Source: a virus
Taxonomy: Duplodnaviria > Heunggongvirae > Uroviricota > Caudoviricetes
DNA length: 4,142 nt
IMG/VR virus record: IMGVR_UViG_2711768040_000003
Strand: one strand, 5' to 3'
The notes under the pieces were generated by a model. That model ran no database searches, was not told where the DNA came from, and worked only from the letters and a program-made list of their open reading frames with translations. A program made the position numbers and the translations under genes. Positions 1,877-3,236 of this stretch are shown piece by piece. Each line of letters begins with the position of its first letter. The stretch's first letter is position 1.

Positions 1877-1898
1877 TAGCTAACCAACGAGGCTAATA

Positions 1899-2219
1899 AT
1901 GGAATTTAAAGATTTACCAATGCAATTCCAGGAAATGGCAGCGAATATAGTTCGTTCCCAACTGGCGACTCTTGACCTGAGTACCGTAGAAAAAGAAACC
2001 ATCGATACTATATCCGGTAACGTGCGTCGTGCCTTTATCGGTCTGTACGAAGAGAAGCAGCTCTCTGATAACCAGGATTTACATGAAAAATACCTCCTGG
2101 ATCTAATGGATATCATTGATAAGGGGTTTGGCTTGTTAATGAAAAAGAAAGGGATTCGAATAGAACTCCTTGAAAATTACTTTGCAACAAAAAGCATTAA
2201 TTCTTTTGATTCAAAATAA
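1899..2219 (+). CDS. Hypothetical acidic protein, 106 aa, no recognised family; first gene of the AT-rich inserted segment
   Basis: 106-aa ORF in the track with a good SD (GAGG at 1889-1892, 6 nt before the ATG). Co-directional with the operon, starting 23 nt after the ydfC stop. AT-rich relative to flanking DNA. I recognise no motif. Confidence 0.6.
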   Translation: MEFKDLPMQFQEMAANIVRSQLATLDLSTVEKETIDTISGNVRRAFIGLYEEKQLSDNQDLHEKYLLDLMDIIDKGFGLLMKKKGIRIELLENYFATKSINSFDSK

Positions 2220-2472
2220 GAGAATTAATTACAGACTTAACATGCTCTTTCTCATGATTGAAGCTCTCATGATTGAAAGTGCCGGGTTGAAGCGAGTCGA
2301 TATAATCAACAAGACTCTGTCGTACGACTTCATTTTTATCCATAACAGATGCAAGAAATGAAATTGCTAAAAGAGTTATATCACTACGCGCCGCAGCATG
2401 CTGCAATGCTTTATCAAAATTATTAATCTGGCGTATCAGGGAGTTAATGATTTCATCATTTTCAGTCGACAT
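2197..2472 (-). CDS. Hypothetical 91-aa protein, convergent with and overlapping the 3' end of the 106-aa ORF by 23 bp
   Basis: ATG-initiated portion of the 202-aa minus-strand track ORF: MSTENDEIINSLIRQINNFDKALQHAAARSDITLLAISFLASVMDKNEVVRQSLVDYIDSLQPGTFNHESFNHEKEHVKSVINSLILNQKN. Plausible helical composition and an AAGGG SD-like sequence upstream. The track's extension to 2805 starts at TTG and is arginine-rich across the GC-rich region, so I trimmed it. Confidence 0.4.
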   Translation of the reverse strand: MSTENDEIINSLIRQINNFDKALQHAAARSDITLLAISFLASVMDKNEVVRQSLVDYIDSLQPGTFNHESFNHEKEHVKSVINSLILNQKN

Positions 2473-2806
2473 TTCACCCTTCTGAGGGTTGGTGATTAAG
2501 GAGTTCTCCACGGGTGAGGTGGAGTGCGTGCGCCGGACACGGGTGAGCATCCGGCACTGACAGTTTACTGAAAGGATATTTCCCTGAAAAGTCAGACCAT
2601 AACGCGAAAGCGCACGGCGAGGTAGCTGGTTCATAGATAGCCTGTCGTTAAATTTTCGTCGACCGTGCACTTCCGGTTGTGGCAACCCGCGAAATGGCGC
2701 GGCGGTAAGTATGGCGGGGTTATTCCTTCCCCGTTGAGGACACCGGGTTGTCAGGTTGACCATACGCTTAAGTGACAACCCCGCTGCAACGCCATCTGTT
2801 ATCAAT

Positions 2807-2864
2807 TTTCTGGTGACTTTTGGCGGTATCAGTTTTACTCCGTGACTGCTCTGCCGCCCTTTTT
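2807..2864 (+). ncRNA. dicF: DicF small regulatory RNA (cell-division inhibitor sRNA), including its 3' stem-loop and U-tract
   Basis: tttctggtgacttttggcggtatcagttttactccgtgactgctctgccgccc followed by ttttt matches my recollection of E. coli DicF (UUUCUGGUGACGUUUGGCGGUAUCAGUUUUACUCCGUGACUGCUCUGCCGCCC) with about one mismatch. It sits between ydfC and dicB as in Qin. Confidence 0.85.
2822..2864 (+). terminator. Intrinsic-terminator-like 3' end of DicF (GC-rich stem GGCGG...CCGCC followed by TTTTT)
   Basis: GGCGG (2822-2826) and CCGCC (2854-2858) flank an internally structured loop, followed by the T-run 2860-2864. DicF 3' ends are known to arise partly by termination. Confidence 0.5.
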
Positions 2865-2868
2865 AAAG

Positions 2869-3030
2869 TGAATTTTGTGATGCGGTGAATGCGGCTGAGC
2901 GCACGCGGAACAGTTAAAAAGGCCAGTTGACTTCCGTATTGGTTCTTATGGGTGGGTTCTCTGTATCCGGCGTTAATTGTTAACTGGTTAACGTCACCTG
3001 GAGGCACCAGGCACCGCATCACAAAATTCA
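2869..3030 (+). repeat. Perfect 19-bp inverted repeat (TGAATTTTGTGATGCGGTG at 2869-2887; CACCGCATCACAAAATTCA at 3012-3030) enclosing 124 bp between DicF and dicB
   Basis: Exact reverse-complement arms read from the sequence. In RNA this gives a 19-bp duplex starting 5 nt after the DicF U-tract and ending 17 nt before the dicB ATG. Confidence 0.7.
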
Positions 3031-3047
3031 TTGTTGAGGACGCGATA

Positions 3048-3236
3048 ATGGAAACGTTATTACCAAACGTTAATACGTCTGAAGGTTGCTTTGAAATTGG
3101 TGTCAAAATCAGTAACCCTGTATTTACTGAAGATGCCATTAACAAAAGAAAACACGAACGGGAGTTATTAAATAAAGTATGCATTGTTTCAATGCTGGCC
3201 CGTTTACGTCTGATGCAAAAAGGATACTGGCAATGA
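3048..3236 (+). CDS. dicB: DicB cell-division inhibitor, 62 aa
   Basis: METLLPNVNTSEGCFEIGVKISNPVFTEDAINKRKHERELLNKVCIVSMLARLRLMQKGYWQ is near-identical to my recollection of K-12 DicB. In frame with track ORF 2952..3236. Confidence 0.9.
   Translation: METLLPNVNTSEGCFEIGVKISNPVFTEDAINKRKHERELLNKVCIVSMLARLRLMQKGYWQ

Follow-up and report, generated by a model that had tools for sequence, protein, structure and literature searches.

A perfect inverted repeat between dicF and dicB probably forms an RNase III-processed helix that closes an STnc100/PasD-related RNA domain

Introduction

The dicBF operon that lies in the Qin prophage of Escherichia coli K-12 offers the nearest described parallel to the locus studied here. 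A 72-nt form of the sRNA DicF, dependent on RNase III and derived from the full-length dicBF mRNA, goes back to Faubladier et al. 1990, as that work is cited by Balasubramanian et al. 2016 (PMC5069750) and by a 2022 review (PMC9438474). More recently, the operon was found to give rise to a terminated transcript of 1,146 nt and a read-through transcript of 1,608 nt, and the 5' end of a 190-nt DicF species was assigned to a separate RNase III cut upstream of DicF (Ragunathan et al. 2023, PMC10448788). On dicBF processing, the latter study discusses this upstream cut only and does not mention the 72-nt form.

Two further groups of prophage RNAs bear on the locus. The sRNA KilS was described in 2021, in a paper that does not mention DicF (Bar et al. 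2021, PMC8175672). STnc100 and PasD are published as expressed, Hfq-associated sRNAs of a stand-alone kind, and DicF goes unmentioned in a 2026 preprint on Pas/STnc100 RNAs.

RNase III sites are also familiar from the early transcripts of phages. In the leader of lambda N, at a site that lies between nutL and N, and in the T7 early mRNA, at R1.1 and other sites, a long hairpin within an early polycistronic RNA stands just 5' of a ribosome-binding site and is cut by the host RNase III. A cut of this type separates the cistrons and alters the translation of the downstream gene.

Here, we analyzed a stretch of 4,142 nt from a virus of the class Caudoviricetes (IMG/VR record IMGVR_UViG_2711768040_000003), which we refer to as the window and which carries a perfect inverted repeat between dicF and dicB. 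We consider it likely that the two arms pair on the + strand of the read-through RNA as a helix of 19-21 bp, and that this helix closes an STnc100/PasD-like domain and is cut by RNase III, thereby splitting DicF from dicB.

Results

An exact inverted repeat between DicF and dicB

A repeat finder run on the window returned two arms of 19 nt, at 2869-2887 (TGAATTTTGTGATGCGGTG) and 3012-3030 (CACCGCATCACAAAATTCA), which are 100% complementary and have 124 nt between them, exactly as the original prediction had read them from the letters alone. When the window was searched for the 19-mer with up to three mismatches, only these two sites were recovered, against a mean of 0.00 matches in 200 dinucleotide-preserving shuffles. 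By our own rough estimate, which is not a tool output, a perfect 19-mer inverted repeat within 300 nt has a chance of ~5e-6 in 4.1 kb. The inverted repeat is thus real and lies far beyond chance.

The position of the arms, predicted to be just 3' of DicF and 17 nt before the dicB start, is likewise correct according to Rfam and the list of open reading frames (Table 1). The DicF model (RF00039) scores 75.8 bits at 2808-2859, above its gathering score of 48, and the 5' arm starts 9 nt past the end of the 53-nt DicF (2859). This end is set by the sRNA's own intrinsic terminator, a GGCGG...CCGCC hairpin followed by a U-tract at 2860-2864. On the other side, the 3' arm is followed by 17 nt (3031-3047) and then by the dicB ATG (3048). 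A scan of the spacer for intrinsic terminators or promoters found none between 2860 and 3047.

In RNA, the helix grows to 21 bp by the addition of G2868·U3031 and A2867-U3032. When the + strand RNA of 2865-3035 was folded, the arms formed the basal helix that closes a multi-branch domain, with a minimum free energy of -70.7 kcal/mol (z -6.46); the - strand of the same region folds less well (-56.9), and the helix taken alone accounts for -32.1 kcal/mol. The nested motif GTTAACTGGTTAAC that had been noticed in the enclosed segment is present, at 2979-2992 rather than 2977-2990, and it is not a palindrome: it consists of two self-complementary GTTAAC hexamers in tandem with TG between them. In the fold, it supplies the loop and the 3' side of the internal hairpin 3.

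Table 1. Coordinates of the features of the DicF-dicB region in the window
Feature	Position	Strand	Basis
DicF sRNA, 53-nt form	2807-2859	+	Aligned to annotated K-12 dicF (b1574)
Long helix, 5' strand	2867-2887	+	Perfect arm 2869-2887; extended by A2867 (A-U) and G2868 (G·U)
Putative RNase III cut, 5' strand	2878-2879	+	3' end of 72-nt DicF (2807-2878), mapped from K-12 reports as cited in later papers
Structured core	2888-3011	+	STnc100/PasD-related; 80-sequence family alignment, pair counts
Core: degenerate hairpin 1 (preceded by the GAAU junction)	2892-2908	+	
Core: variable insert	~2909-2962	+	Includes 14 nt (2920-2933) absent from K-12
Core: hairpin 3	2969-2995	+	Contains GTTAACTGGTTAAC at 2979-2992
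Core: hairpin 4, CCUGG-AGGCA-CCAGG	2997-3011	+	
Long helix, 3' strand	3012-3032	+	Perfect arm 3012-3030
Predicted partner RNase III cut	3022-3023	+	Standard geometry with a 2-nt 3' overhang assumed; placed from the 72-nt end
dicB Shine-Dalgarno GAGGA	3036-3040	+	MFE structure
dicB, 62-aa cell-division inhibitor	3048-3236	+	Pfam PF05358 (E 7e-39); NCBIfam NF049927; RefSeq homologue annotation

The spacer was also considered as coding sequence. An open reading frame that starts from GTG at 2952, in frame with dicB, corresponds to a 94-aa DicB annotated in phage mEp460. We take this longer protein to be an artefact of annotation, as the DicB defined by RefSeq, Pfam and NCBIfam alike has 62 aa and covers the full model. 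In the record of phage mEp460_ev081 (LR597641.1; L138 2409-2863), the 94-aa DicB is called from a GTG within the RNA element, and a 51-aa antisense "hypothetical protein" is called over DicF and the 5' arm; both are likely mis-annotations.

The long helix is maintained on the RNA of the + strand

The K-12 Qin prophage carries the orthologous spacer at 95% identity, with the arms equally placed between DicF and dicB. The comparison with K-12 that had been suggested thus recovered the same spacer, but not the same length: that of K-12 is 14 nt shorter, and the window carries an extra AGGCCAGTTGACTT at 2920-2933. Two C-to-T changes in the K-12 arms give two G·U wobbles in the + strand RNA, whereas the arms of the window are Watson-Crick paired throughout.

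We collected homologues from IMG/VR by an internal motif, from GTDB genomes, and by a scan for DicF-type terminators. The resulting long-helix alignment holds 22 distinct variants from E. coli, E. albertii, E. ruysiae, Shigella, Citrobacter and IMG/VR contigs. Across these variants, 98.7% of the helix cells are paired, and pairing falls to 32-45% once the partner strand is shifted by 1-3 columns. Conserved complementarity of the arms had been named as a test of the original prediction, and the homologues do keep it, with compensatory as well as wobble changes. Compensatory double changes occur at two positions (U-A to C-G and A-U to G-C, in L049 and the Citrobacter locus L136), each of them in only two of the 22 sequences; a third (U-A to G-C, in L043) is possible if the adjoining bulge is moved by one base. 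Five helix positions show G·U-compatible variation only. Variation in the long helix is mostly shallow, owing to the close relationship of the homologues.

The innermost part of the helix can be followed further, in an alignment of 80 distinct sequences of the family, every one of which forms the six innermost closing pairs. These pairs covary (GC:40/AU:34/GU:6 and UA:59/CG:14/UG:7), and the CACC that opens the 3' arm is invariant across the family. Ungapped pairing past ~8-10 bp is found in the dicF-type subgroup only.

The wobble variation is informative as to the molecule on which the helix is maintained. On the + strand, 98.7% of the cells pair, compared with 91.0% on the - strand, a difference that stems from 35 G·U cells, and selection therefore acts on the + strand RNA. 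This strand specificity speaks against a role of the inverted repeat as DNA, be it as a protein-binding palindrome or as a recombination site that marks a boundary in the lambdoid mosaic. Homology among the loci with dicB, kilR, rha/ash and ydaE does stop right after the 3' arm, as expected of such a boundary, but selection that keeps a functional RNA module intact explains the boundary equally well. Moreover, an arm separation of 124 nt is atypical for an operator, some variants carry a 1-nt bulge on one arm only, and the helix lies within a covarying RNA structure. Given the strand-specific G·U pattern and the one-sided bulges, we reject the DNA-level palindrome, which we regard as very improbable.

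The same data bear on a MITE-like mobile element inserted between dicF and dicB, the 19-bp arms of which would be its terminal inverted repeats. Perfect terminal inverted repeats round a short non-coding segment fit such an element. The search for further genomic copies that had been proposed as a check did find homologous sequence: E. coli genomes carry a median of 2 such places, with a maximum of 10. The mobile element is nevertheless not favoured by these copies: they represent multiple lambdoid prophages with a fixed synteny, in which a DicF-type terminator lies 4 nt upstream and an open reading frame 15-38 nt downstream. The flanks (TTAAAG versus TTGTTG) show no target-site duplication, and no empty sites were found, since 62 of the 62 unique DicF-type terminators sampled carry the element directly after them; two apparent exceptions (L178 and L212) proved to be unrelated terminators. 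In addition, the arm variation consists mainly of G·U-compatible changes that would leave A·C mismatches in DNA as well as on the opposite strand, and the inner helix belongs to the covarying structure of the RNA family. In view of the missing target-site duplication, empty sites and dispersed contexts, we reject the mobile element and give it next to no chance; the original prediction had already ranked it as the less likely reading, and this ranking is borne out by the constant synteny.

The enclosed core is related to STnc100 and PasD

The Rfam model of STnc100 (RF02076) matches the window at 2857-3080 with 36.3 bits (E 1.8e-5), below its gathering score of 47. In this match, the outer helix of the family coincides with the arms, and only a weak alignment links the 3' part of the model to the beginning of dicB. 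The K-12 Qin spacer scores 34.4 bits (E ~1e-5), and the loci of K-12 Qin, phage mEp460 and the Rac type together span 28-43 bits (E ~1e-5). True STnc100 copies in prophage contigs reach 68-161 bits.

In the 80-sequence alignment, the family plan runs from a closing strand ending in GGUG, through a GAAU(C) junction, hairpin 1 and a variable insert, to CGCGG with a strongly covarying hairpin, an invariant CC(N)GG-AGGCA-CC(N)GG hairpin, and a closing strand starting with CACC. The window shares with STnc100 and PasD the GGUG...CACC closing helix, the GAAU junction, CGCGG with its covarying hairpin, and, right before the 3' closing strand, the CCNGG-AGGCA-CCNGG hairpin, which is invariant save for one compensated pair. 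Like the window element, STnc100 and PasD are found in lambdoid prophages of Enterobacterales.

The differences are equally clear. Hairpin 1 of STnc100 (CCCCU-GUGCGG-AGGGG) is degenerate here and reads CGGCU-GAGCGC-ACGCG, with two non-canonical pairs (cmscan). The closing helix has 19-21 bp, compared with 6-10 bp in the family, and the 3' intrinsic terminator that STnc100 has of its own is absent, with the dicB ATG following 17 nt past the arm. General family members typically come with a terminator of their own, 40-80 nt downstream, and lack an adjacent open reading frame, and thus look like stand-alone sRNAs, in agreement with the published STnc100 and PasD. Members of the long-helix subtype, in contrast, have a DicF-type terminator that ends 4 nt upstream, no downstream terminator, and an open reading frame 15-38 nt downstream. 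STnc100 and PasD stand alone in the late/lysis region, whereas the window element sits within an operon, directly after the terminator of another sRNA. Because the score, hairpin 1 and the terminator all fall short, we do not claim full membership of RF02076. As judged by sequence and predicted structure, the spacer, whose conserved structured domain the original prediction had not recognized, is a relative of STnc100/PasD that has diverged, lies inside an operon, lacks a terminator and has a lengthened closing helix.

Among the true STnc100 copies, some are clustered: four lie in tandem within 1.1 kb in L009 (2265-3380), and a pair lies 484 nt apart in L015 (3121-3798). True copies also adjoin tRNA genes in prophage late regions (L009 and L015, and also L034, L055, L064, L075 and L081).

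RNase III processing of the read-through transcript

Counted from the 5' end of DicF, the 72 nt reported for K-12, as cited in the later papers, end at position 2954 of the K-12 locus (L001) and at 2878 of the window. In both, this is the tenth of the 19 bases of the 5' arm, which in K-12 spans 1649444-1649462, and thus the centre of the duplex. A helix of 21 bp provides the ~20 bp or more of continuous double-stranded RNA (~two helical turns) characteristic of RNase III substrates, and its pairing is kept by selection across the 22 homologous variants. In the texts of two transcriptome-wide RNase III maps of K-12, dicF appears only in citations (PMC6212723, PMC5371410); this absence is uninformative, because the operon is repressed under standard growth.

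The proposal that the arms form an RNA duplex, and that this duplex is an RNase III substrate setting a 3' end of DicF, is therefore supported by the K-12 reports, in the form in which later papers cite them, and by the comparative data, with one restriction. Since the 53-nt DicF stops at its own terminator, the RNase III end concerns read-through transcripts only, and since the read-through transcript is separate from the terminated one, the helix can form in the read-through fraction only. If the second strand is cut at the predicted partner site, dicB mRNA would start at 3023, with a leader of 25 nt, and a core of 144 nt (2879-3022) would be set free.

The folding of the dicB leader points to a further consequence. 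In the read-through RNA, folding predicts weak pairing of the terminator's U-tract (2860-2866) with UUGAGGA (3034-3040), which extends the helix outward over the Shine-Dalgarno sequence. The mean unpaired probability of the Shine-Dalgarno sequence is 0.11-0.16 in the folded read-through RNA versus 0.52 after the predicted cut, and the dicB AUG lies in a small local hairpin both before and after it. Such a modest predicted change in accessibility is no more than suggestive of an effect of cleavage on dicB translation, which the original prediction had expected to be uncoupled.

The stem of the window would work like the phage RNase III sites introduced above, which show neither sequence nor structural homology to it. 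The lambda N and T7 sites are simple hairpins, whereas the helix in the window closes a multi-hairpin domain, and its upstream product is a regulatory sRNA.

The elaborate domain leaves room for a reading in which RNase III cleavage is incidental. The helix might mainly protect or insulate the RNA, as a stable 5' or 3' structure that blocks exonucleases or RNase E, or it might hold an STnc100-like functional domain, for example, an Hfq-associated regulatory RNA. The domain is indeed conserved beyond the needs of a plain RNase III stem, with GGUGAAU, CGCGG, UCACC and AGGCA invariant in its junctions and loops; its stand-alone relatives STnc100 and PasD are expressed and associated with Hfq; and a closing helix of 6-10 bp suffices in most family members. 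The lengthening to 19-21 bp, however, is confined to the intra-operon subtype, where it is kept at full length; it matches what RNase III needs and exceeds what closing the domain takes. An RNase III-dependent end inside the helix is, moreover, on record in the K-12 reports as later papers cite them, and the element has no 3' terminator with the poly-U tail typical of Hfq-dependent sRNAs. We hold a mainly protective or domain-holding role to be unlikely and prefer the RNase III-processed helix.

Upstream of DicF, the window has ~330 nt of non-coding sequence (2480-2806). When this region was folded, the expected 5' end of the 190-nt precursor (~2670) fell in a predicted imperfect long-range duplex; as the z-score is only -1.15, we make no claim on an upstream RNase III site. 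A box GUGC(G/A)C(C/U)UCCGGUUGU (~2666-2680), 5' of DicF, is common to KilS-type loci.

A module shared by dicB, kilR, rha/ash and ydaE loci

Comparison of the homologous loci revealed a constant module, made up of a DicF-type terminated sRNA and the long-helix element, with flanks that change on both sides. The genes downstream of the module are dicB, kilR (NCBIfam NF008465, an FtsZ inhibitor), a Rha/Ash antirepressor gene, or ydaE; the seed upstream in the module is that of DicF or of the "AUUGCUGUGUGUAGUC" type. In L007, L040, L048, L115, L126 and other loci, the sRNA in the position of DicF, ~60 nt upstream of the element, has a different 5' seed, CAUUGCUGUGUGUAGUC. The terminator and the downstream element of these sRNAs are unchanged, and they score 38-43 bits with the DicF model, below its gathering score. 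It seems that the seed was swapped and the 3' module retained.

The Rac prophage of K-12 provides an example (L235 2231-2503, - strand; NC_000913.3 ~1418230-1418502). Here KilS (b4833) occupies the position of DicF, scores 39.1 bits with the DicF model, and shares its terminator, GGCGG...CCGCCCUUUUU, with DicF. The order of the parts is that of the window: a DicF-like terminated sRNA, AAAG, an identical 5' arm, the core and the 3' arm, followed after 31 nt by the FtsZ-inhibitor gene kilR. The core is STnc100-like (28 bits). The two loci differ in the seed of the sRNA, in the 3' arm, which in Rac is bulged by 1 nt and contains a G·U pair, and in the downstream gene, as kilR is unrelated to dicB. 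On sequence grounds, KilS appears to be a paralogue of DicF.

The element is also present in functional phages, including mEp460, Rac-SA53 and Stx/PPompW phages. A copy of the core only (43 bits, model positions 31-147), which lacks the outer helix, occurs in phage P7 (72453-72568; L140 2001-2116) and also in D6. It lies within the ban operon of these P1-like phages, which is controlled by C1, and precedes terB by ~38 nt. The terB of P7/D6 is annotated as similar to one in the cryptic prophage CP-933R.

In L053 (5482-5964) and L136 (5208-5618, - strand), a DicF-like sRNA, an STnc100-like element, isrK (63-68 bits) and the C4 antisense RNA (73-80 bits) lie in a row on a single strand. The open reading frame of the Rha/Ash antirepressor is overlapped in its 5' part by isrK and C4, in an arrangement like that of P1 immI. 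Near-identical E. coli-type DicF/KilS modules (L132 and L134; H47 and H54) turned up in the records of a Veillonella parvula MAG, a Candidatus Nanosynbacter MAG, Aeromonas phage AP1 and Actinobacillus phage vB_Apl-pPE4. These records most likely reflect binning or assembly contamination and not true hosts.

Other differences from the Qin prophage

The window represents another prophage variant than K-12 Qin, with another immunity region and two extra open reading frames between ydfC and dicF. The gap between ydfC and dicF measures ~930 nt in the window (1877-2806) versus ~340 nt in K-12 (L001 2543-2882). The additional DNA holds two convergent hypothetical open reading frames, at 1899-2219 (+, 106 aa) and at ~2194-2469 (-, 91 aa), the latter taken from the RefSeq annotation of a 96%-identical genome. 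A tandem 13-mer, TCTCATGATTGAA, occurs twice at 2250-2277. The immunity region (276-1077) is unlike dicC/dicA of K-12. It encodes a 93-aa regulator (276-557, -), annotated in the closest genome as a "transcriptional regulator" next to a YdaT-family gene, as well as a 139-aa protein (658-1077, +). The C-terminal part of the 139-aa protein, judged by eye, presumably resembles that of DicA.

Discussion

In the mechanism that we favour, transcription would pass the intrinsic terminator of DicF into dicB, and the + strand RNA would then form the helix of 19-21 bp that closes a multi-hairpin domain of ~165 nt. The closing helix, stretched from the usual 6-10 bp of the family to ~two helical turns, would become a substrate of RNase III. 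Cleavage close to the centre of the helix would yield the 72-nt DicF 3' end of the K-12 report and, by extension, a dicB mRNA that starts ~25 nt 5' of the AUG, together with a free core RNA of ~144 nt. Of these elements, the helix with its conservation and covariation, the family relationship and the synteny are borne out by our data, the RNase III-dependent 72-nt end is taken from the K-12 literature, and the partner cut, the fate of the core RNA and the effect on dicB are proposals. In this way, the sRNA would be parted from the toxic cistron downstream. The cut would probably also alter the translation or stability of the dicB mRNA, since folding predicts a partial sequestration of the Shine-Dalgarno sequence beside the helix beforehand.

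The stem matches an RNase III processing site of K-12 that has been in the literature since 1990 and is, in this respect, already known biology. As a cut 3' of DicF has been on record for so long, the inverted repeat itself adds little. What our analysis contributes is modest: the kinship of the spacer with STnc100 and PasD, the selection on the long helix at the RNA level, and the module common to dicB and kilR.

A bolder reading can be built on these observations, which we put forward tentatively and consider possible but doubtful. The spacer might be a third product of dicBF, a stable STnc100/PasD-like RNA of ~130-144 nt that RNase III excises and that has a regulatory or protein-binding role; a two-RNA module, composed of a DicF/KilS-type sRNA and the core, would then have been recruited as a gate before unrelated toxic early genes, namely dicB, kilR and the rha/ash antirepressor gene.

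Both DicF and DicB are encoded by prophages, inhibit division and become toxic on overexpression, and the splitting of their co-transcript therefore matters for the control that cryptic prophages exert on host division. The same RNA module stands ahead of dicB and of kilR, which encode two unrelated FtsZ-directed inhibitors. Together, the STnc100/PasD kinship, the shared module and the apparent paralogy of KilS and DicF suggest a testable model, in which a common post-transcriptional gate would act on the toxic early-left genes of lambdoid prophages.
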